This document shows, piece by piece, positions 21,845 through 40,604 of a DNA stretch of 52,390 nt. Source of the DNA: an uncultured Planctomycetales bacterium (GTDB lineage Bacteria; Omnitrophota; Gorgyraeia; Gygaellales; Profunditerraquicolaceae); contig CAYHAI010000012.1 in assembly GCA_964354585.1 (NCBI GenBank), forward strand, positions 1 to 52,390, written 5' to 3'. Position 1 is the first letter of the stretch. Each line of letters opens with the position of its first letter. The position numbers and the translations under genes were made by a program. The notes below the pieces were generated by a model. It had not been told where the DNA came from and did no database searches. It saw only the letters and a list, made by a program, of their open reading frames with translations.

Positions 21845-21852
21845 AATAAATA

Positions 21853-23703: not shown

Positions 23704-23736
23704 CCATAACCCCTTGTTATAAAAGGCATTTCACGT

Positions 23737-23765
23737 ATTTTAGCATATTCTTGTGATGTTATCAA
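23737..23765 (-). promoter_or_regulatory. Putative sigma70 promoter for wzc and downstream glycan genes
   Basis: Minus strand TTGATA-17 nt-TAAAAT, with TG in the extended -10 position. Confidence 0.55.
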
Positions 23766-25510
23766 TAACAAAATAAATCTAACCCTATCTTCTCTACTCT
23801 TAACTGATGGTTAAGATAATTCTGGTATTGAATATTATTCCTTAAGAGCTCTTCATGTGTGCCCATATCAATCTTATCAGGACTATTTAGGAAAAATACT
23901 AAATCTGTTCTTTTTATGGCGGAAAAACGATGCGATACAATTATAATAGTAGTATCTCTCAGTGAAACCATCATATTATCTATTATCCTTGCCTCTATCT
24001 GGGCATCTACCGAGGAAAGCGCCTCATCTAAGATTAGAATCTTAGGTCTTTTAATCACTGCCCGGGCAATGGCAATGCGTTGCTTCTGGCCCTCGGAGAT
24101 TTTACAGGCATTCTCTCCAATAATTGTATCGCAGCCCAAAGGCAAGTTATTGATAAAATCATCAATACAGGCAATCCTAGCTGCCTCTACTATTTCTTTA
24201 AAACTCGCATCTGGATTCCCATATCTGATATTATTTGACACTGTATCATTCCATAAATATGGCTCCTGAAGCACTACGCCAATTTGCGCGTATAAGGATT
24301 TTGATTTAATAAGATTTATATTGCCTCCATCAATGATTATCTGGCCACTCAGAGGTTTATAAAGTCTTAAGATTAAATTAAGTATCGTTGTCTTTCCACA
24401 ACCCGAAGGGCCAACCAAGGCAATAAAAGAACCACCCTCGATATAAAAATTTAGGTTCTGCAAAACCATCTTATCCTGTCGGTAACCAAAGGTCACATTT
24501 CTAAATTCTATCTGGCCTTTTAAAAAGGTAATTTCTTTGGTATATTTATCTTCTATAGAGTCAAGCTTGGTTTCTAATATGGAATCTAACCTCTCGCAAG
24601 AAACAAGATCCAAAGATACTTGCTGGAAGAAATATGCCAGCGAACTTTGTAACCCTGATAGCTGATTTAAATAAAGGGTTATTGCGCTAAGGCTTCCTAA
24701 AGTCATTTTGCCCTTGATTATCTGATAACCGCCATAAAAAACAATTAGGCCTAAAATTATCCGCTGGGCTAAACTGTTGGCAAATCCGGATATCACTCCT
24801 AATCTTGTATTTATTAATCCAAATCTAATATTTTCTATCAATCCTTTTATATATCGTCTGGTCTCATATTTTTCTTTTCCCAATGCCTTTACTAAATGAA
24901 TATGTGATAATACTTCCTGTAGGCTCTTAAAAATCTCCCGTGAATTTTCTATCAATCTCCTCATTATTTTCTTTGCTCTGCGGGTAAAATAATAAGGGGT
25001 AAGATATAAAAAAGGTATAAGCGCTAAAGCCAACAAGGCAATCTTGTAATCTAAATAGAACACAATCGCCAAAATAAGTAATGACCTAGGTATGAGTGGG
25101 ATAGCCTGTGGCAACACATCAGTAATAAATGAAGTAAGCCGGTCTATGTCATAATTAATCGTATAGAGGTGCTCGCCAGTAGAGCTATCTTGAAAAAATC
25201 CATAAGGAAGACGCTGTAATTTATTAAAAACCTTACAATTTAAATCAAGATTTATCCGCAACCTGATATAATTTGTTAAATAATTACTTAATCCGCCAAT
25301 AAGACCATTTAAAATAAATATGCTTCCTCCAATAGAAACTATGATTATAAATAATCTTAAGTCTCTATTCCCGTAGGCTTTATCAATAATAAGTTTAGTC
25401 AAATAAGGGTTAACCAAGCCTAAGGCCATAGTAATGCCGCTTAAAAACAATACAAGAACTTCTCTCTTCCAAAAAGGAAGTAGATATCTATAAAACTTAA
25501 GGTATTTCAT
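23762..25510 (-). CDS. ABC exporter, fused permease + ATPase (peptide/MsbA-like), no C39 peptidase domain
   Basis: N-terminal 6-TM domain, GPSGCGKTT, ISEGQKQRIAIARA, LILDEA, SHR. Confidence 0.92.
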   Translation of the reverse strand: MKYLKFYRYLLPFWKREVLVLFLSGITMALGLVNPYLTKLIIDKAYGNRDLRLFIIIVSIGGSIFILNGLIGGLSNYLTNYIRLRINLDLNCKVFNKLQRLPYGFFQDSSTGEHLYTINYDIDRLTSFITDVLPQAIPLIPRSLLILAIVFYLDYKIALLALALIPFLYLTPYYFTRRAKKIMRRLIENSREIFKSLQEVLSHIHLVKALGKEKYETRRYIKGLIENIRFGLINTRLGVISGFANSLAQRIILGLIVFYGGYQIIKGKMTLGSLSAITLYLNQLSGLQSSLAYFFQQVSLDLVSCERLDSILETKLDSIEDKYTKEITFLKGQIEFRNVTFGYRQDKMVLQNLNFYIEGGSFIALVGPSGCGKTTILNLILRLYKPLSGQIIIDGGNINLIKSKSLYAQIGVVLQEPYLWNDTVSNNIRYGNPDASFKEIVEAARIACIDDFINNLPLGCDTIIGENACKISEGQKQRIAIARAVIKRPKILILDEALSSVDAQIEARIIDNMMVSLRDTTIIIVSHRFSAIKRTDLVFFLNSPDKIDMGTHEELLRNNIQYQNYLNHQLRVEKIGLDLFCY

Positions 25511-25540
25511 GGTATCTTTCTATAGGACTGCCTTCTCTAC

Positions 25541-26665
25541 TTACCCCAGATGCGCTAATGCACAAAACCATCTGACTCTTCCCTCTAAATCTCCTGTCTC
25601 CAATAGTGCTTTTCCCGGACAATTAAAACAGGTGTTTCTGATGGAACAGCTCTGACATTTAGAATTATTAGCAAAATATCGTGTTCTTACCCAGTCTAAA
25701 ACTTTTTTCTGGGCTTCTCCCACATCTTCCTTAAGCAGATTTATCTTAGGCTTCCTAATGCAGTCACAAGGGAATGTATTTCCATAAGGGTCAATATAAA
25801 CTCCGTCTCCGCCTCCGATAGCACAGCGGAATAATTCGTGGTTCCTGCCTGCCGGCAGGCATGGCGTGGGGCGTGGTTGGTGGTTCGTCAATAAATCACG
25901 ATCATCAATTAACGATTTCTTATTTCCATTTAAACCCAAAACTTCCTGTGGTGAAATTCTTAAATTAGCAGGAGCCAAATCTCGGTTTAATCGACTATGC
26001 AGGAAAATACCCGGTCTAAATTTTAAGCCTGAACTTTCCACAAATTTTCTTATCCGGGGTAGCTCTCTAAAGTTATCTCTCGTAACCTGGGTCTTAATCT
26101 TTAAGGGCAGCTTGGCTTTTAAAATTAGATTTATTCCTCTCATTACTTTATAAAATGAACCTTTGACTTGAGATATCTTCTCATATAAATCTTGCGTAAC
26201 TGCATTTAGGGTAATCTCAATAACAAAGGGAGGCCTGCCTCTTAAATACTCAGCTATCCTTCTATTCATAGAATAGCCATTAGTAAATATAGTGATAATA
26301 AAACCTTTATTCTTTGCATACCCATATAATTCTAAAAAATCTTCTCGGGTCAAAGGGTCTCCTCCGGTAAAACATAACCATAACATACCTCGGTTATAAA
26401 CCTTATCTAAAATGAGTTTTGCCTCTTGGGTATTCAATTCTCTCCGAATGAATCTCGCTCTATTATAGTAATCACTATAACAGTGTTTGCAATGAAGTTC
26501 ACAACCAAAGGTCAGTTCGAACTGGCAAACATTAGGTCTTCTATTTTGCCAATTCTTTTTGTGAAATTTTAAACTAAAATGTTTATAAGGAATTATTCTC
26601 ATTGGCCTACTGACATCTACATTGCCGACTAAGAATGAATTTGTATTACTAAGATACCTCCGCAA
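25541..26665 (-). CDS. Radical SAM/SPASM protein 3 (likely start 26602, MRIIPY)
   Basis: CELHCKHC, FTGGDPL, FTNG; SPASM FRCAIG...IDPYGNTFPC...CQSCSIRNTCFNCPG...FC. Confidence 0.92.
   Translation of the reverse strand: MRRYLSNTNSFLVGNVDVSRPMRIIPYKHFSLKFHKKNWQNRRPNVCQFELTFGCELHCKHCYSDYYNRARFIRRELNTQEAKLILDKVYNRGMLWLCFTGGDPLTREDFLELYGYAKNKGFIITIFTNGYSMNRRIAEYLRGRPPFVIEITLNAVTQDLYEKISQVKGSFYKVMRGINLILKAKLPLKIKTQVTRDNFRELPRIRKFVESSGLKFRPGIFLHSRLNRDLAPANLRISPQEVLGLNGNKKSLIDDRDLLTNHQPRPTPCLPAGRNHELFRCAIGGGDGVYIDPYGNTFPCDCIRKPKINLLKEDVGEAQKKVLDWVRTRYFANNSKCQSCSIRNTCFNCPGKALLETGDLEGRVRWFCALAHLG
25837..25885. repeat. Heptamer array (CGTGGTT-like) interrupted by a 16-bp perfect palindrome TGCCTGCCGGCAGGCA, inside the radical SAM gene
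   Basis: Units at 25837-43, 25865-71, 25872-78 and 25879-85; palindrome at 25846-25861; encodes HQPRPTPCLPAGRNHE. Confidence 0.75.
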
Positions 26666-28298
26666 GATAATTCTTTAGCATCCACACCAGATGATAAATA
26701 ATCTCTTCACTACTTATTTGTTTAAACAACTTACTCATATACTCATTTATTTCCTCAATACTCGAGTTCTGTTTTTCTCTTAAATAAAAAAGTATTAAGA
26801 AAACTATTTGGGGCACGATAAGATTTAATGGAGGCACTGCTGATAAAAATCTCCTTGTTTTCAATAATTGAATCCCTTCTTCTGTTACGGTTATATGGGT
26901 TTGCTTATTTAATATACGCGAAGGATAATGCTTAAAACATTCAAAATATCGGGGATAAAAAACCGGTTTTGCTTTAGGAGATGCCTTATATTTTTCTGCT
27001 TTATCTATTAATTTGTCACAAAGCATTTCATATTTAGGGATAACCAATGACCAGTCATAATTTTCAAGAACCCGCTTTCTGGCATTATATCCCAATCTTA
27101 AACGCAAGTCCTTGCGTTTAATGAGGAGCGAAAGATACTCAATCATTTTCTTTATATCTATACAAACTGATTGCCCCAAAGATAAATGCTCTACCTGAAT
27201 ATCATTAGTGAATAAATAAGTAGAATTTGATATCTCCCGGTCACACTTAGCCCAATATGTAGGGATACAAAAGCCTGTTTCATTATGTATAACTATCTCT
27301 CTATAGCCATCCCAATCGGAAACAACCACAGCTAAACCTGAAGCCATAGCCTCAATGACGGTTAAACCGAATGACTCCTGCAGGCTATCGCTCGGTGAAA
27401 CAAAGATATCGCTTGCAGCGTATAATAAATATTTTTCTGCCTGGGAAAGATTTAAGAAAAATTTGATATTATGCAAAATACCTAAATCATTTGCCATCTT
27501 CTTTAGTCTTACGGCATAATTACCTTGAAAATTTTTACCTGCAAGCACAAGTAAAATATTTTTGTTTTTAGTTAACAGGTTCTTAAAAGCAAAAAGCACT
27601 GGGTAGAGGTCTGCTTTATCAGAAATCGAGAAACGACCGACATAAAGAATAATGATTTTTTTGTCAGGTAATCGCAGCTTTTTACGAGACCCATCCTTAT
27701 TATTTTTCATATAATCTTCGCTATTTATCCCCAAGGGCAGACAGTCTAACCTTGCTTTATAATTGAGGTTTATAGACATTTTTTTAAATATATTTTGCTC
27801 TATCAATCTATGTATTTTCTTTACAGACTCCAAATTTGACTTACTAACGCATATAATAGAATCAAAAGGATGTAAGTCAGAAATCATATTATAAAAAAAA
27901 TAGTGACCAAGTAATTCAGCATAACTTACAGTATGGCTCACGCCACAGATAGGAAAATACCTTTTTGCATAAATACTGCGCAAATTAGCTATATTAAATA
28001 TTGCCGGAGTACTAAAGGTTAAAAAGATTAAATTTTTTGCATTCTTTAAAAATAAAGGAAGTTGAATAATCTTTTCAATTTTTACCCTTTCATTATTTAT
28101 ATAAGGAATTACCTCTTTGTGCAAAGGATACTTTTTACTATTTTCTGGAAGGATAAAAAAATGATACTCATCAAATTTTCCAAATCGGATTAAGTTTTTA
28201 TAAAAATCGCTTGTTGCCACCCATGCCCCATATAAACCTGCTTTGCTTGAGGATTCCCTAAGATTCCCCATGAATTCATTTGTTACAAATATTCTCAT
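26649..28298 (-). CDS. GT4 glycosyltransferase with C-terminal helical (winged-helix/RRE-like) extension
   Basis: LYVGRF...K, DIFVSPSDSLQESFGLTVIEAMASGLAVVVSDWDGYREIV; extra ~110 aa after the GT-B fold. Confidence 0.85.
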   Translation of the reverse strand: MRIFVTNEFMGNLRESSSKAGLYGAWVATSDFYKNLIRFGKFDEYHFFILPENSKKYPLHKEVIPYINNERVKIEKIIQLPLFLKNAKNLIFLTFSTPAIFNIANLRSIYAKRYFPICGVSHTVSYAELLGHYFFYNMISDLHPFDSIICVSKSNLESVKKIHRLIEQNIFKKMSINLNYKARLDCLPLGINSEDYMKNNKDGSRKKLRLPDKKIIILYVGRFSISDKADLYPVLFAFKNLLTKNKNILLVLAGKNFQGNYAVRLKKMANDLGILHNIKFFLNLSQAEKYLLYAASDIFVSPSDSLQESFGLTVIEAMASGLAVVVSDWDGYREIVIHNETGFCIPTYWAKCDREISNSTYLFTNDIQVEHLSLGQSVCIDIKKMIEYLSLLIKRKDLRLRLGYNARKRVLENYDWSLVIPKYEMLCDKLIDKAEKYKASPKAKPVFYPRYFECFKHYPSRILNKQTHITVTEEGIQLLKTRRFLSAVPPLNLIVPQIVFLILFYLREKQNSSIEEINEYMSKLFKQISSEEIIYHLVWMLKNYLAEVS

Positions 28299-28304
28299 TT
28301 ATCT

Positions 28305-29873
28305 TTATTTATATTCATCTGACACCAGATAACCCAAATCCACTAATTCCTGAACTATGGCAATCTGCTCTTTGTCTTGAGGAATAATTAAATATTCATC
28401 TGGTTTTAAGTAACGGGCGCACTTCACTAAAGAATTCCATAATTTTTTGGGATAGCGCCTAATCCTTGGCCCAGGATATCCAAATTCCATGAGTGCCTTT
28501 TCTTTATCCCAAAAGGCAATGCGGAAAAACCCGCGCCAAATACTATTTTTTTCTACTTTGGGCGGCGCGTTCATAGCTGAATATATTCCCTGGGCAACGG
28601 CAAAGGCATAATGTAAAGGTCCATCACCATAGACATAAGCTCCGGGAGGCAATTCTTTTCTTGTATCCACAAAATAATTAAAAACCCTGTTATCAACCAC
28701 ATTAAATAACTGTCTTTTTATATCTCGCTCAGTTTTTTCTAAATCCAGGGGTATCTCGGGAGGCCTCTTTATCAGATATCTTACGGCTTTCTTTAAATTA
28801 TCTTTTAAAATTTTGGGGTTACATTCTTTGAGCACAAAATTACGGTATTGTTGGTTGGATAGCCAATTTCGTTCAAGGATTGCCCTTTGTAAAAGAATTC
28901 TAAATTGCCTTAAGCTAAAGCGACAGCCAAAAAGCGTAGGATAGGTATCCACCCCTTTCCAGGGCATATTATCTGCTAAGAGCCTTAGGCCACAAAAATT
29001 AGTGGTCACCACCGGCAGTCCGCAGGACATTGCCTGGCGTGGAGTAACCCCAAAATCCTCATCTGGCTGGATAGATAGATTGACAAACAAATCTGCTGAC
29101 CAAAATAAATCCCTTAACTCCTGCTTATTCTTAGCCTCCTGAAAACGCAGCCAGGGCCTGGGCCTATTGCGCAATATTTCCGCATTAAAAAAGTGGGAAA
29201 ATGTCTTATGCTGGGCAAAAGAAAAAGCCAACCCAAACTCTTCTTCAATATTACCTGCTAAGGTAAACACAATATTATCTGAAATAGGCCAGATATCCAA
29301 GGCGCGGATTAACTGACAAATTCCCTTAGTCACAATCCATCTACCGGCATAAACAATATGTAACTGCCCTTTTCTTATCCCTTGTTTCTTACGTGCCAGC
29401 AAACGCTGATGGTTATTAGGTAGAGTAAAATAATTAGTATCTACTTTGTTACTAAAAACCGCTATCTCCGGCGCAAGACTACCCAAGTAAGACCTTATCC
29501 GATTCATTTGAAATTGGGTTGAAACAAGGTCAACCTGAGCAGAGGGCAGATATTTAAAGTTATAAAGATGCTCTGGCAACAATAACGAACCTAAAGAAAG
29601 CCAAAGTAACCGATGGGGCACTTTGGATAGGAGATTTCTTTCTGATAAAAAGTGTACTGATACAAATATCGCATCTGGTTTTCCCAGAAGCATCTTAAGT
29701 CTTTTCTCTTCTAATTTTTCATTCAGTGGAATAATTTTGCCAAGCTGGCTAAGACAGCTAAAAAACCATTTTTTATACGCGATGACCGCAGTCCCTTCGT
29801 CAACCTTGAACGGGCCTTTTTTGTTCTTCTTAAAAACACTCAAGTAGTCTTTTTCTAAGATATAAAATTTCAT
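28305..29873 (-). CDS. GT4 glycosyltransferase with C-terminal extension (RRE-like tail)
   Basis: VYAGRW...KG, DLFVNLSIQPDEDFGVTPRQAMSCGLPVV; tail ends ...QELVDLGYLV. Confidence 0.8.
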   Translation of the reverse strand: MKFYILEKDYLSVFKKNKKGPFKVDEGTAVIAYKKWFFSCLSQLGKIIPLNEKLEEKRLKMLLGKPDAIFVSVHFLSERNLLSKVPHRLLWLSLGSLLLPEHLYNFKYLPSAQVDLVSTQFQMNRIRSYLGSLAPEIAVFSNKVDTNYFTLPNNHQRLLARKKQGIRKGQLHIVYAGRWIVTKGICQLIRALDIWPISDNIVFTLAGNIEEEFGLAFSFAQHKTFSHFFNAEILRNRPRPWLRFQEAKNKQELRDLFWSADLFVNLSIQPDEDFGVTPRQAMSCGLPVVTTNFCGLRLLADNMPWKGVDTYPTLFGCRFSLRQFRILLQRAILERNWLSNQQYRNFVLKECNPKILKDNLKKAVRYLIKRPPEIPLDLEKTERDIKRQLFNVVDNRVFNYFVDTRKELPPGAYVYGDGPLHYAFAVAQGIYSAMNAPPKVEKNSIWRGFFRIAFWDKEKALMEFGYPGPRIRRYPKKLWNSLVKCARYLKPDEYLIIPQDKEQIAIVQELVDLGYLVSDEYK

Positions 29874-29901
29874 TTTAATATCCCAAGAAGGAGTTTTTAC
29901 C

Positions 29902-30822
29902 TTATATTTTTCTTACAAATTCAATAACCTTTTTATTATTTACAAATCCCAACTTAAAACAAGTAACATTCTTTACCAAATCCTCGCAAAAACAAACTAC
30001 ATTTTCTAAACACGCCTTATCCCAGAAAGTAGGAAAAAGCGCAGGATAAAGCATGCTAAATGCCTCTTTCTCACAAATACGCCGCAGTCTATTTTGGCAG
30101 GCATGATAAATAAAGAATAACTTATCCAGACGCGCTGATTCAATGCGTGACAGAAGATAATCGCTGAATTCTCCGTGCCAGGGTGAGCCATAGATAAGAA
30201 ATTTACCTTTTAATCTGCGCACAATTATGCGGTCATCATTAAGGACCATTGCCCGGCTATGCTTGTGCCAAAGCCTGGCGGTAGTACTTTTACCCATACC
30301 AGATTTACCGGCAAAAAGTAAACCCCTGCCATCTAAATCCCTTACGCCAATACTATGCACAAAGATTCCTTTTTTCCTCAAGGCAAAATAATTTATTAAA
30401 AGAACCTGTAAAAAGTCATAAATAATATCTGCAATATTCCAGACCCGGCCTTTGTTCTTCTTAGGTAATAGATAAGCGGTTACTGTGTCAAATGTCTGAT
30501 TTACCAACATAACCTGTTGTTTATTTTCTAAAGGGCAGCGGTAAATATAAGCATTATCTTTTTTTTGCAGTCTCCAGCTCTCCTGGTGTCCATCGGGGTG
30601 AAAGGTGGTAAAGATATCTCTGGCTTTACCAATATCCGGCGATTTATCCACTATGTCAATCTTAATGGCAATATCCGGCTTAGCTTTTCCTTTATATAAA
30701 AAGCTATTAAACCTTTCGGGAATCTGCAGTCTTTGTCCTTTTTTGCTAAGTTGTTCATAACTAAAATTACTCTGTAGCTGAATGATTGTGTCAGCGATTT
30801 TTAGCTTAACCTCTGTTTTCAT
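29902..30822 (-). CDS. HPr-kinase-like P-loop protein (ScmC/HPr-rel-A type; putative peptide kinase)
   Basis: VHSIGV...GLLFAGKSGMGKSTTA...VLNDDRIIVR...YGSPWHGE. Start moved to MKTEVK (30822) to remove the overlap with the upstream gene. Confidence 0.8.
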   Translation of the reverse strand: MKTEVKLKIADTIIQLQSNFSYEQLSKKGQRLQIPERFNSFLYKGKAKPDIAIKIDIVDKSPDIGKARDIFTTFHPDGHQESWRLQKKDNAYIYRCPLENKQQVMLVNQTFDTVTAYLLPKKNKGRVWNIADIIYDFLQVLLINYFALRKKGIFVHSIGVRDLDGRGLLFAGKSGMGKSTTARLWHKHSRAMVLNDDRIIVRRLKGKFLIYGSPWHGEFSDYLLSRIESARLDKLFFIYHACQNRLRRICEKEAFSMLYPALFPTFWDKACLENVVCFCEDLVKNVTCFKLGFVNNKKVIEFVRKI

Positions 30823-30835
30823 ATTCTTTTCTTCT

Positions 30836-31930
30836 CTATTCTGCCCGGTATTGGCTTTCTGGATCGCAGGCAGTGAAGGTTCTATTATAAAGCAAGGCCT
30901 GCCCCGGCCACCATTTGCAATCATTGCAGAATTGGCATTTATCGCATTGATAATTCTTATCTGGCTTTATAGAGGCAACTAACTCTTTTAATCTCTCCCA
31001 CGCATATTTCAAACCATCTTTCGGATGTACGATGTGCGATGTGCGATGTACGATGTACTTATTCAATATTTTATATTTAGGATAATCTATCATCAAACAC
31101 ATCTTCAACTCGCCATATGGAGTTATCGCTGCTTGACTTACTCCTACCCCGCATTTAAATAGAGTATTGTGTATTGTGTATTGTGTATTGTGTTCTGATT
31201 TTTGAAAATTCAAACCGCAGGCTTCAAATTTGTCTTTACTGGTGACCTGGCGACCTGGTGACCTGGTGACTATTTGTTTCCTAAATCCTCTATGCCGATA
31301 CGGTTCTCTATCGCCATCTAAACGCGGTGAAAGCCTATCATCTAAACGATGCAAAGCGCCTAAAGAAGCTGCAAAATCCTGAATTTCTTTTATCTCCTTC
31401 TCATTTTCCTTTAAAAGGCAACTCTTAAATCCCAGCCTGACTCCATTTTTATGCAAAAGCCGGATGGCCTTAAATACATTATCGCAAGAGCCCTTAACTC
31501 CCGTAATCTGCTCAAAAGCCCTTTTACTTATAGCCGGGATAGTAATATCTACCTTATTTGGGTTGAGCTGCTTCAATTCCTCGGCTTTGGCTTTATCTAT
31601 GAGCGAACCATTGGTATAAATAATAATCTGGAAACCTTTCTTCTTGGCATACCAGAGAATCTTGAATATATCCTCTCTTAAAAATGGCTCGCCGCCGGTA
31701 AATCCCAAATAAAAACAGCCTAAATCTTTAAGTTGGTCTAAAATAGAAAATACCTCTTTTGTGGTAAGTTCTACCCTGGCTTTCTTTTGATAACTGGCTG
31801 GAACATAACAGTGTCTACATCTAAAATGACATCTATAGGTTAATTCAAATATTACCCGCAAAGGGAAACTATCTTTCCTTGCTGTTTTATGTATCTGTTG
31901 CCAAAAATCGTGGTAGGATCTAACTTCCAT
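30836..31930 (-). CDS. Radical SAM/SPASM protein 2
   Basis: ELTYRCHFRCRHCY, FTGGEP, YTNG; SPASM FKCGVG...ITPYGELKMC...CDKCQFCNDCKWWPG...C. Confidence 0.92.
   Translation of the reverse strand: MEVRSYHDFWQQIHKTARKDSFPLRVIFELTYRCHFRCRHCYVPASYQKKARVELTTKEVFSILDQLKDLGCFYLGFTGGEPFLREDIFKILWYAKKKGFQIIIYTNGSLIDKAKAEELKQLNPNKVDITIPAISKRAFEQITGVKGSCDNVFKAIRLLHKNGVRLGFKSCLLKENEKEIKEIQDFAASLGALHRLDDRLSPRLDGDREPYRHRGFRKQIVTRSPGRQVTSKDKFEACGLNFQKSEHNTQYTIHNTLFKCGVGVSQAAITPYGELKMCLMIDYPKYKILNKYIVHRTSHIVHPKDGLKYAWERLKELVASIKPDKNYQCDKCQFCNDCKWWPGQALLYNRTFTACDPESQYRAE
31024..31058. repeat. Heptamer tandem repeat GATGT(A/G)C x5 inside radical SAM 2
   Basis: gatgtac gatgtgc gatgtgc gatgtac gatgtac; encodes YIVHRTSHIVH. 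Confidence 0.9.
31162..31194. repeat. Heptamer tandem repeat G(A/T)GTATT x4.5 inside radical SAM 2
   Basis: gagtatt gtgtatt gtgtatt gtgtatt gtgtt; encodes HNTQYTIHNTL. Confidence 0.9.
31239..31270. repeat. Octamer tandem repeat CTGG(T/C)GAC x4 inside radical SAM 2
   Basis: ctggtgac ctggcgac ctggtgac ctggtgac; encodes VTRSPGRQVTS. Confidence 0.9.
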
Positions 31931-32993
31931 TAATCTGTTCTGCAGTTGCTTTAGCTAATTCGCAATAATAAGGAACCGGCGCCTCTTCATCACCGGTTTC
32001 TAAATACGCCCTTGCTGGACAATGATAGCAAATCGGTCTTAACCGGCAATCCTTACATTTAGAGTTAGTTTTAAATTTTTCATTTAAAAGTTTAGGAAAT
32101 ATATTATAGAAACCTTCTCTAAAGGCAGTGTCTTTTAGATTAACGCTAAACTTATCTGAGAAGCCACAGAACTTAAGATAACCGTAAGGGTTAATGTCAA
32201 AATGCTGCATCCATGAATTACACTGATAAAGAAACTGCCTATCTCTTCTTAACTTAGGCAAAGTGCAATCTAAACTCTCTTGATATTCCTTCCAGATATC
32301 CGGGTCTTGCTTTTTTACCTCTAATAACTCCGCAGGCGAAAGCCTATAATTACAAGGTATTTTATCACGGTTGTATCTAGGGTATATCATAGGGTCATAT
32401 TGAAAACGGTATCTATTTCGGGGTAAATTATCAAAGGCTTTTTCTGTAAAAGCCTTTATCCGGCCAATCTGGGACTTATTTTGCTTAAGGCAGTTAGCTT
32501 TTAATATCAAGGGCGATTTTTTTTCTTTCAACTGGCTGATTGTATCCATAACCTTAGCAAAAGAACCGGGAACCCGAGTAATTGCTTCATAGGTTTTTTG
32601 GGTTATGCCATTTAAGGTAATTTCTATAGAATAAGGCGGAGATTTTAGAAAATAATTAATCATCTGGGCTGTAAGTGCCTGGCCATTGGTAAGCAGGGTG
32701 ATAAAAAATCCTTTTTTCTTGGCATAAGAATAAATCTCCAGGAAATCCTTTCTTATTAAGGGGTCTCCTCCGGTAAGGCACAGGCACAAGCAACCCTCTC
32801 TTTGTATCATATCGAGGATCCGCTTCCATTCTGCAGTGGTTAGTTCCCGGCGTGTTGATTCTAAGCCTTTACAATAGCAATGGACGCAATTTAATTTACA
32901 TCTATAAGTGAGTTCAATCTGGCCATTTAAAGGAAAGTGTGCTTTTTTATTAAAGAGGTCATAGAAAAAATACCCGGCCTGCTTTTTGTTCAT
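31920..32993 (-). CDS. Radical SAM/SPASM protein 1
   Basis: ELTYRCKLNCVHCY, LTGGDPL, LTNG; SPASM YQCNSW...INPYGYLKFC...CKDCRLRPICYHCPA...YYC. Confidence 0.93.
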   Translation of the reverse strand: MNKKQAGYFFYDLFNKKAHFPLNGQIELTYRCKLNCVHCYCKGLESTRRELTTAEWKRILDMIQREGCLCLCLTGGDPLIRKDFLEIYSYAKKKGFFITLLTNGQALTAQMINYFLKSPPYSIEITLNGITQKTYEAITRVPGSFAKVMDTISQLKEKKSPLILKANCLKQNKSQIGRIKAFTEKAFDNLPRNRYRFQYDPMIYPRYNRDKIPCNYRLSPAELLEVKKQDPDIWKEYQESLDCTLPKLRRDRQFLYQCNSWMQHFDINPYGYLKFCGFSDKFSVNLKDTAFREGFYNIFPKLLNEKFKTNSKCKDCRLRPICYHCPARAYLETGDEEAPVPYYCELAKATAEQINGS

Positions 32994-33134
32994 TGCTACA
33001 TTCTCCTAAACGCACGTCTTGAAAATATCTTTTTTCTCAACTTAGCTATGCCAAACCTAATCCCTCTTATATCCTCTTGTTGCCAAATTTTGAATTTGCT
33101 CTTATTAACAAACTACCAAATCGCCAAAAAGGGC

Positions 33135-33377
33135 TTAGGAAGCGGCAACGGTAGTGTTCTGTTTATATGTAGAGGCAGTCCCACTCGCAGCATCGCAGGT
33201 TACATGCGTCTCACCCACCTTCGGACTCGTAATCCCGCAAGGCCTATATTGAGACGCTCCCTTGTTAGCTGCTACTGTTGTCCAGCTCTGACCAGTATAG
33301 CAGGCGCACTGCAATACCGCCTGTTCAGGGTTGAGTTTTACCCGCGTGATTACCGGCTCAAACTTCTTCTTATACAT
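33135..33377 (-). CDS. Putative RiPP precursor peptide (80 aa)
   Basis: Strong SD (GAGGTGA) before ATG; basic leader-like N-terminus KKKFEPVITRVKLNPEQAVL; core with Cys24/26/47/61 and 16 Ser/Thr; directly upstream of radical SAM/SPASM genes. Confidence 0.8.
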   Translation of the reverse strand: MYKKKFEPVITRVKLNPEQAVLQCACYTGQSWTTVAANKGASQYRPCGITSPKVGETHVTCDAASGTASTYKQNTTVAAS

Positions 33378-33415
33378 ACATTCACCTCGCTTTCTAATAA
33401 CTCTATTTCTATCTA

Positions 33416-34201
33416 TTAATATTTGTCAAATAAGTCCTTGATAATTGTCTTGGCGTTCACTACGAGATTGGCTTCATCTTCATTAAAAAGAAAAGGCCTT
33501 AATCCCTTCGCAAGCCTTTCCAATTCCGAAAGACTAAATTCATTAATCGTCTCGAGCATAACTTCTCTAGGCTCTTGCTTAATACCATTGGCTTCTAACA
33601 CATCTTTATTGATCGGGAATTTTTTAGAAAGCATAATAATAATATCATAGATATGTCTTCCCTTCTTAATATGCCTTAAGGCGTCTATCTTTTCCGCAAA
33701 GACTGAGCCTTTAGACATTACCCTAACTGGAAAAATCTCGCCAAAACTTGAAACGTTAGTTGTCTCTGTCTCCAGTTCAAATATAGGTCTGTTGGCTTCC
33801 AACTTTACCATAAGATTTCCTCTTTTATCCATTATCTTGTAATATTCTAAGACATTTTTGAATACAAATACGCTTGATGAAAGTCTTCCTCTATGCTGGA
33901 AAGCAACCTCAGGATGAATATTCTCTCTTTTTAATTCTTCTTTGACAAATTCTGCAGCCTTTTGGAATTCTACCTTATTGACTTCGGTAATGTTGAAATC
34001 TAAATCTTCGGAAAACCTCTTAAAACCATATACTAATCTTAACGAGGTTCCACCTAAAAAATAAAATTTATCATGCCATTTACTTACGTAAAGATATTTG
34101 AGCATAAGGGTCTGAATATATTCTCTCATTATGCCGCGCATCTTATTGATGGGCAGATTATTAATCTTGGCCTGCTCTATTAGTGCTTCATAACCGAGCA
34201 T
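33416..34201 (-). CDS. AbiEii/AbiGii-family nucleotidyltransferase (type IV TA toxin)
   Basis: FLGGTSLRLVYGFKRFSEDLDF, AEKIDAL...RHIYDI. Confidence 0.9.
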   Translation of the reverse strand: MLGYEALIEQAKINNLPINKMRGIMREYIQTLMLKYLYVSKWHDKFYFLGGTSLRLVYGFKRFSEDLDFNITEVNKVEFQKAAEFVKEELKRENIHPEVAFQHRGRLSSSVFVFKNVLEYYKIMDKRGNLMVKLEANRPIFELETETTNVSSFGEIFPVRVMSKGSVFAEKIDALRHIKKGRHIYDIIIMLSKKFPINKDVLEANGIKQEPREVMLETINEFSLSELERLAKGLRPFLFNEDEANLVVNAKTIIKDLFDKY

Positions 34202-34808
34202 AAATATCCTTTATTGTATTATAAGTTAATTTATTAAGATAAGAAGCGTAATTATAGAGTTTTGCCTTTTTAAATTTTTTAAGCACGGATAAATCAAGGC
34301 GCTCTTCTTCTACATTAATTTTATGACCATCATATAGTTTGAAATAAACATAATCTGCAAACGCCTTTTCTGGTTCAGCAATTTTAATCTTAAATTTATT
34401 CTCTTCTATAATTCTATAGCCAATGAAGGCATTTGTCTTTATGCTTCTGTATCTAAAAAAACCATGGTAATTCTTAAATTCCCGCGTGGGTTTTGTGGTA
34501 ATAGAAGTAACGCCAAAGGCGACTTCCGGAATTATATTGTAGATAGAAAGCGCGGTCTCTAATGATACATAAGATGGGCTATATAACTTATTTGCCAAGA
34601 ATAAATCAGGGATATTTTTGCTTTCTGGATAGATTATCTCATAAAGTCCATTTTTTAGAACTCTAATCCAATTACGTTTCTTCCAATAGTGAATTTGCTG
34701 TCTTAAAATCTCTTTTTTTTCTTCTGGAAAAAGACAGTATAAATCCTGAGTTGAAAATAGATATAATCGGTTTTCCTCTAACTTCTTATACAGATCAATA
34801 TATTTCAT
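34188..34808 (-). CDS. AbiEi-family antitoxin / transcriptional regulator (type IV TA)
   Basis: N-terminal wHTH (LKNGLY), LYSPSYVSLETALSIYNIIPE, TSITT, IAEPEKAFADY; overlaps the toxin start. Confidence 0.9.
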   Translation of the reverse strand: MKYIDLYKKLEENRLYLFSTQDLYCLFPEEKKEILRQQIHYWKKRNWIRVLKNGLYEIIYPESKNIPDLFLANKLYSPSYVSLETALSIYNIIPEVAFGVTSITTKPTREFKNYHGFFRYRSIKTNAFIGYRIIEENKFKIKIAEPEKAFADYVYFKLYDGHKINVEEERLDLSVLKKFKKAKLYNYASYLNKLTYNTIKDIYARL

Positions 34809-34842
34809 TTTATTATAATTATTTATGACTTTCTGAAATAGA

Positions 34843-34871
34843 ATTATAACTAATAAAATCTAATTTGTCAA
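34843..34871 (-). promoter_or_regulatory. Consensus sigma70 promoter of the abiE pair
   Basis: Minus strand TTGACA-17 nt-TATAAT (perfect). An imperfect inverted repeat TTATAATT...AATTATAA (about 34813-34849) overlaps the -10, as expected for an AbiEi operator. Confidence 0.8.
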
Positions 34872-35068
34872 TAAAATAATTCCCTAATTTTTAAATTTTT
34901 ACATTAAATTTAAAAGATTCAGACAGGATTTCTTGAAAAGGCAAAAACCGTATCCTGCCAGGCGAGGTAAAACCAAAACCATCAAAAGAATAGAAAGAAA
35001 ATTCGCTTTAATCGCAAAGCTAATTCCTTCGCCAAGCGACAGTATCTCCTCACCGCTACCTAGACGCG

Positions 35069-35353
35069 TTAACCCTTAACCGCCTTTATCTCTTTTAAGT
35101 CTTTTAAGAATTTTGTTAATTCTTTATCCAGTTTTTTTTCTGTAGTGTCAAACTCTTGCAAAAGTGTCTTTTTAATCTTTTCCAGACTTCTCTTGCCGTC
35201 AATAAGTTCCCAAATCCTTGCTGCTACCTTATTCAGGGTATAAATACAGTTTATCTCATCAGATGTCTTATAAATGGGCATAAGGATTGTTTCGTCTTCG
35301 ATGGTGCGACTAACTATATTAGGGTTCTTTTTCAATACGACTGATTCCTTCAT
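35069..35353 (-). CDS. PqqD-family standalone RiPP recognition element (RRE)
   Basis: 94 aa; IVSRTIEDETILMP...IYTLNKVAARIWELIDGKRSL...FLKDLKEIKAV; strong SD GGAGGAGG. Confidence 0.92.
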   Translation of the reverse strand: MKESVVLKKNPNIVSRTIEDETILMPIYKTSDEINCIYTLNKVAARIWELIDGKRSLEKIKKTLLQEFDTTEKKLDKELTKFLKDLKEIKAVKG

Positions 35354-35417
35354 TTCCTCCTCCCTCTTTGATAAGTTACCTTATAGATACAAGCGATACA
35401 GCTATTGCCACGACCTT

Positions 35418-36245
35418 TTAAGGCGAAACAAGTAATCTTATCATCTGCTGCGCTAACTCCTGTGCTTTTTTAAACTTGCCGATAGATATATGCTGATAAA
35501 TAAATTTCATCCTTGCCTTTATCCCATTGCCAAACCTGTCAAAGAATAGAATATTATTTATATATACTTGCAACCATCTCTCTTTTGGAACGTTGTAGTT
35601 CATACCGGTTTTTGACCTGTTCCACTCATAAATTGTATGATTGATATAACATCCTTTGGCGCCCGACATTAAAGCGCGCATCCAAAAATCCACATCCTGA
35701 CCGTCATACGAAAACTCCTGTAGATATCCGCCTATGCGTCTCCATAAAGATTTTCGGCAGGGGCTGCCTCCATAAAGAATCCAATTATGAGTGGCTAAAT
35801 ATCTGGGGTTCAAAAACCCATCACGAGAACAGAGAACACTGCAGTCTATTAGCTTTTCAATACCCTTCTCTGGTTCGCGGCGAATATAATTGCCAAAGAT
35901 AAAATCAGCTTCCGGTGCTTTTCTAAACCCATTGCGTATAGCGGCTATCGCTGCCTGCGGCAGGGTATCATCAGCATCTAAAGGCACGCAAATATCTCCC
36001 TCTATAGCTTCGTAACCGCTATTCCTCGCTGCTGACAACCCGCAGTTTTCCTTATGCCAGATAATATGCGCTTTCTTTTCCTGTTCTAATTCACGGCAGA
36101 TCTGATTTGTCGAGACATCAGACGAGGCATCGTTTACAATAAGTGTCTCAAAATCCTTGTCGGTCTGGCTTTCAAGACTTGCAAATGCCCGTCGCAGCAG
36201 TTCGCCTTCATTGTAGCAGGTTATTACTACGCTTATTCTGTCCAC
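35418..36245 (-). CDS. GT2 glycosyltransferase
   Basis: ISVVITCYN, VNDASSD, GLSAARNSG, LDADD, QDVDFW; GTG start. Confidence 0.9.
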   Translation of the reverse strand: MDRISVVITCYNEGELLRRAFASLESQTDKDFETLIVNDASSDVSTNQICRELEQEKKAHIIWHKENCGLSAARNSGYEAIEGDICVPLDADDTLPQAAIAAIRNGFRKAPEADFIFGNYIRREPEKGIEKLIDCSVLCSRDGFLNPRYLATHNWILYGGSPCRKSLWRRIGGYLQEFSYDGQDVDFWMRALMSGAKGCYINHTIYEWNRSKTGMNYNVPKERWLQVYINNILFFDRFGNGIKARMKFIYQHISIGKFKKAQELAQQMIRLLVSP

Positions 36246-36303
36246 GGATTGTCCTTAGTTACTTTTGTCAACAGTGCTTTATTTAAGCCAATTCAAGAGG
36301 CTT

Positions 36304-40564: not shown

Positions 40565-40604
40565 AAGATAATATAAAAAATCGCCTGTTTTATAAAACCT
40601 GTTA

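Follow-up and report, generated by a model that had tools for sequence, protein, structure and literature searches.

A probable RiPP-type maturation and export cassette of an undescribed family in an uncultured bacterium of the Omnitrophota

The DNA analysed here (the window) is a stretch of 52,390 nucleotides from an uncultured bacterium. Its region 23762-35353 is, with good probability, a RiPP-type maturation and export cassette. It is a member of a large and as yet undescribed family of cassettes from uncultured bacteria, common in the order of the window's genome. The chemical steps, their order and the role of the glycosyltransferases are inferred as follows. The PqqD protein would bind the 80-aa precursor via its conserved N-terminal leader, and three radical SAM/SPASM paralogues would then modify the variable core, most likely by cross-links at conserved cysteines (the CxC junction and one to three downstream Cys). 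The kinase-like enzyme, whose homologues phosphorylate lasso-peptide precursors, would act likewise on the invariant Ser at the C-terminus of this peptide, placing the phosphate on its side chain. In the window's genome, two GT4 glycosyltransferases probably add a sugar, possibly to the Ser phosphate or to Ser/Thr of the core. The product would be exported by the ABC transporter, and the leader is probably cut by an S24/S26-like peptidase, which here is fused to an NTP_transf_5 domain and encoded on another contig. The gene content was established by the ORF listing and by Pfam and NCBIfam scans, which found on the minus strand all the genes listed in the original prediction:

35069..35353, minus strand, PqqD (PF05402, 52.4 bits vs cut-off 23.4), standalone, presumed RiPP recognition element for the leader
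34843..34871, minus strand, sigma-70-like promoter TTGACA-17-TATAAT in front of AbiEi
34188..34808, minus strand, AbiEi-like antitoxin/regulator (PF13338, 18.7 bits, cut-off 25; NF047376, 51.9 bits, cut-off 150)
33416..34201, minus strand, AbiEii nucleotidyltransferase toxin (PF08843, 80.6 bits vs cut-off 22.5)
33135..33377, minus strand, precursor peptide, 80 aa, matching no family, leader conserved across relatives
31920..32993, minus strand, radical SAM/SPASM maturase 1 (PF04055, 79.5 bits)
30836..31930, minus strand, radical SAM/SPASM maturase 2 (PF04055, 98.8 bits)
29902..30822, minus strand, HPr-kinase/PEPCK-fold P-loop protein (PF07475, 20.2 bits, cut-off 33.3; ORF runs to 30924)
28305..29873, minus strand, GT4-like glycosyltransferase GT4a, 522 aa (PF00534, 53.4 bits)
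26649..28298, minus strand, GT4 glycosyltransferase GT4b, 549 aa (PF00534, 124.6 bits)
25541..26602, minus strand, radical SAM/SPASM maturase 3 (PF04055, 66.7 bits; ORF of 374 aa runs to 26665)
23762..25510, minus strand, ABC exporter, permease and ATPase fused (PF00664 and PF00005)
21853..23703, minus strand, Wzc (Pfam/NCBIfam scans)

Alignment with homologues moved the start of the kinase-like gene from 30924 to 30822, giving a protein of 306 aa, and placed the likely start of radical SAM 3 at Met22, at about 26602. A promoter before wzc had been proposed as the downstream boundary; a site matching the consensus at 10 of 12 positions does lie at 23765-23737, but the region shows no excess of such promoter-like sites (52, vs 48.1 +/- 7.3 in shuffles). 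The ABC exporter, presumed to export the mature peptide, showed no N-terminal peptidase domain in the Pfam/NCBIfam scans, and its alignments to peptidase-containing exporter models begin at about model position 150. The window holds no leader peptidase, as had been noted, but a candidate exists elsewhere in the genome: an S24-like protein fused to the NTP_transf_5 nucleotidyltransferase, intact on contig C23 beside Wza.

The 80-aa ORF is a genuine RiPP-type precursor, as proposed: 39 of 44 near loci have a short leader-bearing peptide next to the homologous enzymes, and 28 of 36 distant loci have a related peptide type. The ORF is preceded by the ribosome-binding site GAGGTG, 6-7 nt upstream, and by a promoter-like site (10/12) at 33429-33400. 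It consists of a conserved leader (residues 1-23), CxC at 24/26, a variable core that is rich in Ser, Gly and Thr and contains Cys47 and Cys61, and the C-terminal Ser80. A profile search (E<=1e-3) recovered the pattern of the first 26 residues, KFxPxITRxKLNPEQAVLxCxC, in 1011 database proteins, none of which carries a Pfam domain. The best 120 of these 1011 matches are mostly nameless, and the named ones are called 'hypothetical protein', except for one 'unnamed protein product' and two uninformative metaclust entries. In the same best 120, the motif PEQA[VIL][VIL]xCxC is present in 119, which end in Ser (115) or Thr (3). Peptides picked by the leader motif alone end in Ser/Thr in 83 cases out of 86 (54/57 of the near type and 29/29 of the distant type). 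The core is hypervariable, with a median pairwise identity of 16% vs 68% for the leader (13 sequences). Homologues of the precursor occur in 8 of 41 relatives, with up to seven copies in one genome (G029).

The original prediction suggested examining the neighbourhoods of homologues, and the genes do recur together. The survey covered 80 loci from other genomes anchored on kinase-like homologues (44 near and 36 distant). Of these, 45 contained the peptide profile, 62 a PqqD and 78 one or more radical SAMs. The genes that recur as a core encode PqqD, the precursor, the HPr-kinase/PEPCK-fold protein and between one and four radical SAM/SPASM enzymes. An ABC exporter is a frequent addition, its orthologue being present in 24 of 45 clustered loci. 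The usual companions of the family, an S24-like peptidase, a UPF0489-TPR protein and an NTP_transf_5 nucleotidyltransferase, are all missing from the window. In a sample of 151 genomes of the order, 60 have the kinase-like gene and 23 the precursor profile, 21 of the latter having both. The order consists of small-genome bacteria, and the related records are mostly Candidatus Omnitrophota.

The PqqD of the window scores under the cut-off of every NCBIfam PqqD subfamily, and all the named subfamilies that it matches are peptide chaperones. In relatives, PqqD homologues of 45-70% identity adjoin the precursor genes. Binding of the leader by PqqD, proposed earlier as a test, gained weak support from complex prediction, with a score of 0.48 against 0.00 for the best of three controls, although the pass may come from likeness, since PqqD-leader complexes have already been solved. 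The runs shared at least 88% of contacts, with a partner pLDDT of at least 52. The method was calibrated on 80 solved complexes, 58 of which passed, and on 110 mismatched pairs, of which 2 passed; passes at a score of 0.60 or under included only 7 of the 80 solved complexes but both passing mismatches.

As revealed by a regex search, all three radical SAMs possess CX3CX2C and C-terminal SPASM-type Cys motifs, namely CX12-13GX4C followed by CX2CX5CX2C or CX2CX2CX2C; the Pfam SPASM model was not reported for any of them at E<=0.01. The CX3CX2C and the two SPASM-type motifs are located at 32-39, 258-276 and 313-325 in radical SAM 1, at 34-41, 260-278 and 329-338 in radical SAM 2, and at 55-62, 281-300 and 337-349 in radical SAM 3. 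The enzymes, anciently diverged paralogues, fall into three supported orthogroups in a quick tree (maturase 1, 16 rows, SH-aLRT 99; maturase 2, 12 rows, 97; maturase 3, 15 rows, 99). The orthogroup of maturase 1 adjoins the precursor and is nearest to the lone enzyme of minimal systems. Some relatives encode fusions of a radical SAM with the kinase-like protein (654 and 702 aa).

The kinase-like protein misses the Pfam HPr-kinase cut-off and has weak sequence matches to ScmC, HprK_rel_B and HPr kinase. Its P-loop, GKSGMGKS, is conserved in the alignment of homologues, which also share an invariant N-D-D/E motif (NDD in the window's protein). The AlphaFold2 model (pLDDT 87.5) has the HPr-kinase/PEPCK fold, aligning with PEPCK over 239-240 residues (Z 13.7, rmsd 4.8) and matching HPr kinase 1knx at Foldseek rank 43 (E 6.3e-5). 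Structurally, PEPCK is thus a better match than HPr kinase. Two publications describe phosphorylation of the C-terminal Ser of lasso precursors by HPr-kinase homologues, a phosphate that can then be glycosylated, and a predicted metal site of PsmK formed by the D158/D159 pair (PMC6993621, PMC8498205). By analogy, the window's protein is predicted to be a kinase for the C-terminal Ser of the peptide.

The AbiEi/AbiEii genes are a toxin-antitoxin pair, a later insertion between PqqD and the precursor that stands outside the peptide pathway. Contrary to their inclusion in the predicted gene set, they have no match in the 80 related loci or in 10 earlier loci, and elsewhere PqqD directly adjoins the precursor. 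The AbiEi promoter, the only 12/12 consensus match within 21500-36500, shows the inserted module to be self-contained; the GC content falls to 0.296 at 34001-35000. Since the usual companions are missing from the window and PqqD is separated from the precursor, this copy could be partly disabled. It is very unlikely, however, that it is a decaying remnant inactivated by the insertion and the loss of the S24-like, UPF0489-TPR and NTP_transf_5 genes. The 1.7 kb with its own promoter and the shortened leader-only fragments in relatives (L020, L021/L022, L032, L034) are compatible with decay, but no pathway ORF, from PqqD and the precursor through the three radical SAMs, the kinase-like gene and both GT4s to the ABC exporter, is interrupted or shortened. 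The radical SAMs and the kinase-like protein keep intact catalytic motifs, the precursor has its own promoter-like site, and the S24-like/NTP_transf_5 fusion is preserved. Moreover, read-through is possible because the insertion is co-oriented.

The two GT4s appear to be cassette-specific accessories. Of the prediction that the kinase and the GT4s travel with the radical SAMs, the part concerning the kinase-like gene (and PqqD) held, but GT4 genes accompany just 7 of the 80 related loci, and the pair does not belong to the conserved unit. The GT4s might instead serve the surrounding polysaccharide locus, leaving the peptide cross-linked, phosphorylated and exported; this seems unlikely, though it carries some weight. 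The cassette does sit in a long glycan locus with GT2 genes, a GT2-radical SAM fusion, Wzc and a Wzy-like gene, and generic GT4 domains are abundant, the GT4b catalytic domain being matched in 90 of the 151 genomes. In GT4a, PF00534 covers residues 160-297 only, the model is poor beyond one Rossmann half (pLDDT 59.3), and Gln replaces a Glu found in homologues. This position is the second Glu of the EX7E motif, so GT4a may be impaired. On the other hand, GT4a homologues occur in only 4 of the 151 genomes, and all three besides the window's lie on the contig of the kinase-like gene, 12 bases to 8 kb away; its C-terminal extension is conserved in L051, L057 and L015. The sole other full-length GT4b homologue (G114, 40% identity over 12-546) sits between two kinase-like genes within a double cassette. 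In the window, the pair is flanked at intervals of 6-46 nt by the kinase-like gene and radical SAM 3, two genes that are adjacent in several relatives.

Two further readings tie the peptide or its enzymes to the glycan locus. HprK-related kinases A/B, for which NCBIfam has models, are linked to exopolysaccharide loci, and the modified peptide could take part in, or regulate, the Wza/Wzc-dependent export of polysaccharide, for instance as a glycan-bearing phospho-peptide or a controller of the Wzc kinase. At least 18 of the 60 kinase-bearing genomes (among the matches listed) have a Wzc-like gene on the contig of the kinase-like gene and no more than 15 kb from it, Wzc occurs in 16 of the 80 anchored loci, including 9 of 36 from other phyla, and the 45 clustered loci contain Wza in 9 and Wzc in 8; the S24-like/NTP_transf_5 fusion adjoins Wza as well. 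This enrichment is overstated because related genomes are not independent, and 64 of the 80 loci have no Wzc within the fetched flanks. Hypervariable cores and multiple precursor copies would be expected of a secreted product that diversifies more than of an invariant part of a machinery, and a dedicated exporter accompanies more than half of the clustered loci, which makes a role in polysaccharide export quite unlikely. Extremely improbable is the idea that the 80-aa ORF is incidental and that the substrate of the radical SAMs and PqqD belongs to the glycan pathway, be it a sugar, a lipid or a cofactor. Two more radical SAM genes of the window (B12-binding, 39140-40651; GT2 fusion, 36304-38385) are clearly part of the glycan locus and lack a peptide partner, and the solved relatives of radical SAM 3 include a nucleoside-sugar decarboxylase (7vob, E 1.2e-8). 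Against this stand the conserved leader beside the enzymes in near and distant loci and the chaperone character of the PqqD matches; the co-occurrence data bring the idea close to refutation. None of eight full-length homologues of the GT2-radical SAM fusion lies on a kinase-bearing contig, and therefore the glycan radical SAMs and the cassette segregate independently. The upstream GT2/radical SAM genes are part of the glycan locus and not of the cassette.

The RiPP cassette remains the preferred reading, which the refutations set out in the original prediction did not overturn, with a genuine precursor and a travelling kinase and PqqD, but with the GT4s and AbiE outside the conserved unit. 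The closest solved relatives of its radical SAMs are peptide-modifying enzymes: SkfB and PqqE for maturase 1, PqqE, SkfB and SuiB for maturase 2, and SkfB for maturase 3. Its kinase-like protein may share the role of the lasso-peptide kinases, which phosphorylate a C-terminal Ser. Candidate small ORFs of true Scm cassettes terminate in residues other than Ser, so not every cassette with a kinase of this type has a peptide ending in Ser. The suggested likeness to SynChlorMet is borne out by the gene content of true Scm loci, which have PqqD, two radical SAMs, ScmC, NTP_transf_5, an ABC exporter and an S24-like gene. In the family scans no NCBIfam model reaches its cut-off. The cassette is one variant of a large family rather than a one-off. 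SynChlorMet is its closest named relative, of which it is not a member, and the cassette is best read as part of a new branch of radical SAM peptide systems that is defined by its precursor.

The gene arrangement described for the minus-strand segment 23762-35353 in the original prediction was confirmed by an ORF listing and family scans. In transcription order, the cassette and the gene following it are:

35069-35353, minus strand: PqqD-family gene, first in transcription order (Pfam and NCBIfam scans)
34188-34808, minus strand: AbiEi-like gene, below cut-offs (18.7 versus 25 bits and 51.9 versus 150 bits)
33416-34201, minus strand: AbiEii gene (80.6 bits, cut-off 22.5)
33135-33377, minus strand: precursor ORF of 80 aa (ORF listing)
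31920-32993, minus strand: radical SAM 1 (PF04055 above cut-off)
30836-31930, minus strand: radical SAM 2 (PF04055 above cut-off)
29902-30924 as an ORF, start revised to 30822, minus strand: P-loop gene with a weak likeness to HPr kinase, the kinase-like gene (homologue alignment)
28305-29873, minus strand: Glycos_transf_1 gene GT4a, 522 aa (PF00534, 53.4 versus 26.4 bits)
26649-28298, minus strand: Glycos_transf_1 gene GT4b, 549 aa (PF00534, 124.6 versus 26.4 bits)
25541-26665 as an ORF, start at about 26602, minus strand: radical SAM 3 (PF04055 above cut-off; homologue alignment)
23762-25510, minus strand: ABC exporter without a peptidase domain, last gene of the cassette
21853-23703, minus strand: Wzc, following the cassette

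The revised starts of the kinase-like gene and radical SAM 3 remove two apparent gene overlaps. All NCBIfam matches of the cassette proteins are far under the curated cut-offs, so no named family claims them. The 144-nt spacer between the precursor gene and radical SAM 1 has no unusual RNA fold (z -0.58; 53 of 200 shuffles fold at least as well). Parts of the region 29900-35400 are present in 15 public runs, none of which is listed as RNA.

The cassette is also followed by a Wzy-like gene, and upstream of it lie genes for a GT2, a GT2-radical SAM fusion, a second GT2 and a B12-binding radical SAM protein. The upstream B12-radical SAM, GT2 and GT2-radical SAM genes were considered as cassette parts and rejected: in the 8 genomes of a 151-genome sample of the order that contain full-length relatives of the fusion, these were never found on the contig of the kinase-like gene (0/8), and the upstream genes thus belong to the glycan locus. 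The fusion (36304-38385, 693 aa) carries a CX17C twitch/SPASM-like motif; in relatives the two parts are either encoded side by side or fused into proteins of about 640-650 aa, and they do not co-localise with the peptide cassette. The best matches of the B12-binding radical SAM protein (39140-40651) are P- and C-methyltransferase families, all below cut-off, and the adjacent 567-aa ORF (40605-42308) has a sole, sub-threshold match to the membrane family DUF2298.

The 80-aa ORF is a genuine precursor. Its gene is preceded by a GAGGTG ribosome-binding site 6-7 nt upstream, and a protein search found matches in 8 of 41 related genomes, with up to seven per genome. The likeness is confined to the N-terminal 26 residues (M..K.KF.P.ITRIKLNPEQAVL.C.C), which contain all invariant columns of a 13-sequence alignment, and the median pairwise identity is 68% up to the CxC and 16% beyond it. 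Of 2785 candidates, 1011 proteins matched the precursor profile at E<=1e-3, and no Pfam domain is present in any of the 1011. Among the best 120 of these 1011 matches, most are nameless and the named ones are mainly annotated as 'hypothetical protein', the exceptions being two metaclust entries whose names say nothing and one labelled 'unnamed protein product'. The organisms among the matches listed are Candidatus Omnitrophota/Omnitrophica and Candidatus Gygaella obscura, and one protein comes from a marine sediment metagenome. The PEQA..xCxC motif is present in 119 of the best 120; these 119 peptides contain 2-5 Cys residues and end in Ser (115), Thr (3) or Ala (1).

The genes accompanying the precursor were compared in two ways. 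In a first look at ten loci from seven related genomes, found via the precursor, radical SAM genes were present in 10/10 loci, the kinase-like gene and PqqD in 8/10 each, a related ABC exporter in 6/10, Wzc in 3/10 and GT4 in 2/10; wherever contigs allow, PqqD directly abuts the precursor gene. A second look included 80 public-genome loci anchored on the kinase-like protein and not on the peptide, 31 of the first 44 being titled Omnitrophota or Omnitrophica. Here at least one radical SAM gene was found in 78 loci, PqqD in 62, the precursor profile in 45 (39 of the 44 nearest), an ABC exporter in 36, Wzc in 16 and GT4 in 7. A neighbourhood check of this kind had been suggested with the original prediction. 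The proposal of a RiPP system is supported in its core, where precursor, PqqD, radical SAM and kinase co-occur; the GT4s (7/80) lie outside this conserved unit as accessories, and the AbiE genes (0/80) are no part of it. Of the 151 sampled genomes, 60 have the kinase-like gene; 23 match the precursor profile, and 21 of these belong to the 60. In two loci, a radical SAM/SPASM and a kinase-like part are fused in single ORFs (L103:6880-8841, 654 aa; L104:6719-8824, 702 aa). Several more kinase-like matches in the order lie within open frames of 629-717 aa.

The 36 distant loci of the second look contain a minimal set of PqqD, one radical SAM gene, a small ORF and the kinase-like gene. The peptide of these four-gene systems (L063-L098; for example, L073:9786-9950 and L093 between 9309 and 9620) is about 55 aa long, and the hosts are labelled Deltaproteobacteria, Desulfobacteraceae, Aminicenantes, Nitrospirota, Nitrospinae, Chloroflexia, KSB1, WOR-3 and Aerophobetes. 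None of the minimal-system proteins reaches an NCBIfam cut-off.

When peptides were selected by the leader motif only, 57 were obtained from 35 of the near loci (ending in Ser in 48 cases, Thr in 6 and other residues in 3, the last being short and truncated in look), and 29 from 28 of the 36 distant loci (28 Ser, 1 Thr), the distant type having the form ..Y.KP.I..V.L..EEAVL..CK...C...C...GS. Overall, Ser or Thr is C-terminal in 83 of the 86 leader-selected peptides. Truncated or leader-only copies of 31-44 aa, not ending in Ser, were observed inside otherwise intact cassettes (L020:1051-1143, L021/L022:4609-4725, L032:8917-9048, L034:3362-3493) and are probably decayed duplicates.

The usual full cassette was outlined by label-free clustering of all ORFs of at least 120 aa from the window and 44 loci. 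Radical SAM and kinase-like genes occur in 45/45 loci, followed by the ABC exporter (24), an NTP_transf_5 nucleotidyltransferase (PF14907, hereafter NTP5; 20), a UPF0489 + TPR protein (17), a small S24-like peptidase (15), an HD protein (10), Wza (9), Wzc (8), U32 peptidase-like and B12-radical SAM proteins (7 each), ordinary GT4 (6) and the GT4a type of the window (3). A common gene order is NTP5, S24, UPF0489-TPR, PqqD, precursor, radical SAM, radical SAM, kinase, radical SAM, ABC, NTP5, Wza, Wzc. A U32 peptidase-like gene paired with a 289-aa gene that matches no Pfam family recurs in cassettes (L026, L032, L035, L039, L040 and others); each partner is found in 7 loci, sometimes duplicated, and the pair may be a further tailoring module.

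No S24, UPF0489-TPR or NTP5 gene was found in the window, and the cassette-type S24-like profile matched none of its ORFs. The original prediction rightly saw no leader peptidase in the window, and a candidate peptidase fusion is located elsewhere in the same genome, on the 5.3-kb contig C23, where a Wza-type export gene (L105:1599-2498) is followed by a gene for a 564-aa protein (L105:2604-4295). Residues 217-466 of this protein match NTP_transf_5 (164.9 bits). A small search with the cassette-type S24-like profile matched residues 38-145 at 59.8 bits (E 2.1e-18); with Pfam's S24 model the score is just 14.6 bits. A search of the genome with the S24-like protein of one relative found nothing, whereas the cassette-specific profile did find this fused copy. 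A search for UPF0489-TPR with one query in the genome, which is 89.3% complete, returned TPR-level matches alone.

The AbiEi/AbiEii pair is an insertion into the operon. The two genes overlap by 14 nt and conform to the AbiE definition, an AbiEii nucleotidyltransferase with an upstream AbiEi regulator. The pair (33416-34871) sits exactly between the PqqD and precursor genes, which are adjacent to each other in relatives, and AbiE genes were found in none of the ten first-look loci and none of the 80 related loci. The sole perfect sigma-70-type promoter match of the region (TTGACA-17-TATAAT, 34871-34843) precedes the pair, and a GC trough of 0.296 coincides with it.

The GT4s are rare in the family (7/80 loci) but not random. 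GT4a-type proteins were found in 4 of 151 genomes, and in all three besides the window they are encoded on the contig of the kinase-like gene, 12 bases to 8 kb from it; in L051 and L057, GT4a adjoins the exporter gene. Just one other full-length GT4b was found in the 151 genomes, 40% identical over residues 12-546; it is flanked by two kinase-like genes of a double cassette. The other 89 genomes with a GT4b match have it in the generic catalytic domain alone. Generic GT4-domain matches were also observed in giant open frames of two related genomes (G021:C5:156496-156951, 57756 aa; G103:C17:32523-32831, 10977 aa); giant genes in Omnitrophota are the subject of a preprint, as far as its accessible part goes (10.1101/2023.11.21.568195).

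In GT4a, PF00534 covers the C-terminal Rossmann half alone, and the 150-residue C-terminal extension is conserved. The model of GT4a has a pLDDT of 59.3 and is confident just at residues 145-360 and about 435-520; an ESM Atlas search with residues 365-522 returned no match of use. One caveat is that the window GT4a has Gln at the second position of the EX7E motif, where its homologues have Glu. GT4a and GT4b can be read as optional tailoring enzymes of the cassette, judging from sequence and gene neighbourhood, and may stand in for the nucleotidyltransferase route. The cassette is better described as one variant, carrying GT4s and interrupted by AbiE, within a large, unnamed family that unites radical SAM, PqqD and kinase genes with Ser-ending precursors.

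All three radical SAM proteins possess the CX3CX2C motif (residues 32-39, 34-41 and 55-62 of radical SAM 1, 2 and 3, respectively). Their C-terminal parts contain CX12-13GX4C followed by CX2CX5CX2C or CX2CX2CX2C, shorter than the usual third SPASM motif CX2CX5CX3C. They align along their full length to SPASM families, yet the Pfam SPASM model was not reported at E<=0.01. The nearest solved relatives are SkfB, PqqE and SuiB (E 2.4e-12 to 3.1e-7). A quick maximum-likelihood tree of 57 radical SAM sequences contains three supported orthogroups with one window enzyme each (16, 12 and 15 rows; SH-aLRT 99, 97 and 99), the radical SAM proteins of the minimal systems forming a separate clade (13 rows, support 99). 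Radical SAM 1-3 are old paralogues, and the conservation of each suggests three different jobs. The precursor gene adjoins the radical SAM genes and co-occurs with them, and the enzymes are predicted to act on the peptide.

The standalone PqqD-family protein named in the original prediction is borne out by a PF05402 match of 52.4 bits (gathering score 23.4). The predicted complex of PqqD with the leader scored 0.48, the best control scoring 0.00, which lends the pairing weak support: in calibration, that mark was reached by 58 of 80 solved complexes and by 2 of 110 mismatched pairs, and among those reaching it, scores of 0.60 or less came from just 7 of the 80 solved complexes and from both mismatches. 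At least 88% of contacts are shared between the runs, with a partner pLDDT of at least 52. Since such complexes have already been solved, the score may reflect likeness only.

The kinase-like protein has a PEPCK/HPr-kinase-type P-loop fold. Its AlphaFold2 model (pLDDT 87.5, pTM 0.87) matches ATP-dependent PEP carboxykinases from end to end, with 239 residues aligned (Z 13.7, rmsd 4.8), and a Foldseek comparison with HPr kinase 1knx gave an E of 6.3e-5; the catalytic domain of HPr kinase has the PEPCK fold. In nine homologues the P-loop and the N-D-D/E motif are invariant or nearly so, G-x-S-x-x-G-K-x-T and N-D being invariant columns. An acidic pair lies about 18 residues past the P-loop Lys, the same spacing as in HPr kinase. 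At the sequence level, the match to PF07475 (HPr kinase C-terminal) is below the cut-off of 33.3 (20.2 bits, residues 196-244 only), and a profile search against the sequences of solved structures returned P-loop-level matches alone (best E 3.4e-4 for a designed protein, 0.017 for HPr kinase). In a search of 1.84 billion representatives, the kinase-like profile picked up 775 clusters at E<=1e-30; at E<=1e-10 the number is 6849.

The strongest clue to the pathway is the near-invariant C-terminal Ser beside the kinase-like gene. According to the accessible parts of two papers on lasso clusters, HPr-kinase homologues phosphorylate the C-terminal Ser on its side chain, largely irrespective of the remaining peptide, and in pseudomycoidin a hexose is then added to the phosphate, dependent on the nucleotidyltransferase PsmN (PMC6993621, PMC8498205). 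Phosphorylation of Ser80 is proposed because the C-terminal Ser is near-invariant in two very different precursor types, both beside this type of kinase. The leader would be presented by PqqD, as the complex model suggests; the radical SAM enzymes would introduce cross-links via the conserved Cys residues, the most likely chemistry; the kinase-like protein, by analogy with its lasso counterparts, would phosphorylate Ser80; and the product would be exported by the ABC transporter.

In at least 18 of the 60 genomes of the order that have the kinase-like gene, its contig also carries a Wzc-like gene no more than 15 kb away. The count was made by comparing tables by hand; it is a lower bound since contigs are short, and it includes related, non-independent genomes. 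Wzc also adjoins 9 of 36 loci from other phyla. The association of Wzc with kinase-bearing cassettes is too frequent to ignore, and it is the basis for a reading of the peptide as coupled to Wza/Wzc glycan export. In its full form, namely a new class of radical-SAM-cross-linked ribosomal peptides in which a C-terminal phosphoserine is the site of sugar attachment and which is coupled to Wza/Wzc export, this reading is improbable, with perhaps a slim chance of proving right. If true, the role of the peptide would be to prime, cap or anchor a glycan, not that of a free small molecule, and the long-orphan SynChlorMet and HprK-related/PqqD sets in exopolysaccharide loci of many phyla would be explained.

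Apart from the full reading, radical SAM + PqqD + HPr-kinase-like cassettes unnamed in current family libraries now have a precursor assigned to them, and its leader motif is directly usable in genome mining. The near-invariant C-terminal Ser next to a kinase gives a sharp prediction, phosphorylation of the last residue, and this rule ties the cassettes to the tailoring chemistry of lasso peptides. Omnitrophota are uncultured bacteria with small genomes, and hypervariable, multi-copy exported peptides could plausibly serve them in dealing with other cells. With Wza/Wzc repeatedly in the neighbourhood, peptide modification and surface polysaccharide may be linked.

Full-text searches of the accessible literature found no description of the cassette or its precursor and no match for 'SynChlorMet'. 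The words 'kinase', 'HPr' and 'SPASM' do not occur in the main text of the RRE-Finder paper. In the accessible portions of the literature combining HPr kinase, radical SAM and RiPP, a kinase is mentioned only in lasso clusters, and two metagenome gene-cluster surveys may carry such clusters under a generic label in their supplementary tables (PMC9902471, PMC13635244).

Among the known systems, the phosphorylated and phosphoglycosylated lasso peptides (paeninodin and pseudomycoidin, with PadeK and PsmK) share with the window a kinase homologue, a PqqD-type element, an ABC exporter and a Ser-ending precursor. Relatives of the window cassette carry NTP_transf_5 in 20 of 45 loci, a possible counterpart of the lasso nucleotidyltransferase PsmN, itself probably a PF14907 member. 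However, the class-defining enzymes here are radical SAM/SPASM proteins, and the sequence similarity of the kinase-like protein is limited to the P-loop region. Neither an Asn-synthetase-like lasso cyclase nor a B-type/transglutaminase-like protease was found in 23762-35353, where all ORFs are otherwise assigned; the cyclase being absent, the cassette does not encode a lasso peptide.

The sacti- and ranthipeptide-type maturases (SkfB, AlbA, PapB, StsB, PqqE, SuiB) share with the window enzymes the CX3CX2C core and C-terminal Cys motifs of the auxiliary-cluster (SPASM) type, and their systems likewise combine a Cys-containing precursor beside the enzyme with a PqqD-type leader-binding element. 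In the window, by contrast, the recognition element is a protein of its own instead of an N-terminal domain, each cassette has three paralogous enzymes, and the scores are far under the cut-offs of the named maturases (StsB 81-91 versus 625, PapB 64.5 versus 340, AlbA 47-74 versus 850). HprK-related kinases A and B (TIGR04352, TIGR04355) resemble the window in pairing an HPr-kinase-like protein with a small PqqD-family partner. Their models are among the few that match the kinase-like proteins of this family (HprK_rel_B 25-32, HprK_rel_A 15-20, versus 200), and their genes often lie in exopolysaccharide loci, a parallel to the Wza/Wzc neighbourhood. To our knowledge, their definitions include no radical SAM protein or precursor.

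The closest architecture is that of SynChlorMet, whose models, reportedly introduced in a 2011 paper, describe an HPr-kinase-like protein (ScmC, TIGR04249), a PqqD-like protein (ScmD, TIGR04248) and two radical SAM/SPASM proteins (ScmE, TIGR04250; ScmF, TIGR04251). The original prediction saw a partial resemblance, and this holds for the parts list (standalone PqqD, at least two radical SAM/SPASM proteins, HPr-kinase-like protein) and the companions, but the likeness is one of architecture and not of membership, as all four Scm cut-offs were failed. The window kinase-like protein scores 24.2 bits and the distant-locus proteins 33-36 against the ScmC cut-off of 125, the window PqqD scores 28.7 against 100 for ScmD, and radical SAM 1-3 score 77.4, 57.1 and 61.9 for ScmE and 52.9, 82.2 and 66.2 for ScmF, each with a cut-off of 400. 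True ScmC (132-301 bits) was found in 11 of 251 genomes from the phylum of one distant locus. Where enough sequence was fetched, the true Scm loci contain PqqD, two radical SAM genes and ScmC, and also, in various combinations, NTP_transf_5, an ABC exporter and an S24-like gene, the usual companions of the window's cassette family. The two architectures, sharing gene set and companions, are therefore homologous.

We know of no Scm precursor, and the family description reportedly identifies none. In four of the true Scm loci L116-L121 (L116, L118, L120, L121), small ORFs without annotation combine a Y..P.L-type start with repeated Cys-x-x-Gly-rich cores and could be the missing precursors; these Cys-repeat peptides have no C-terminal Ser, unlike the window's precursor. 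The window's family further differs from SynChlorMet in its third radical SAM orthogroup, in the GT4 accessories of some members and in a precursor family ending in Ser. By these sequence comparisons, the window cassette belongs to a sister family of SynChlorMet and is not a member of it.
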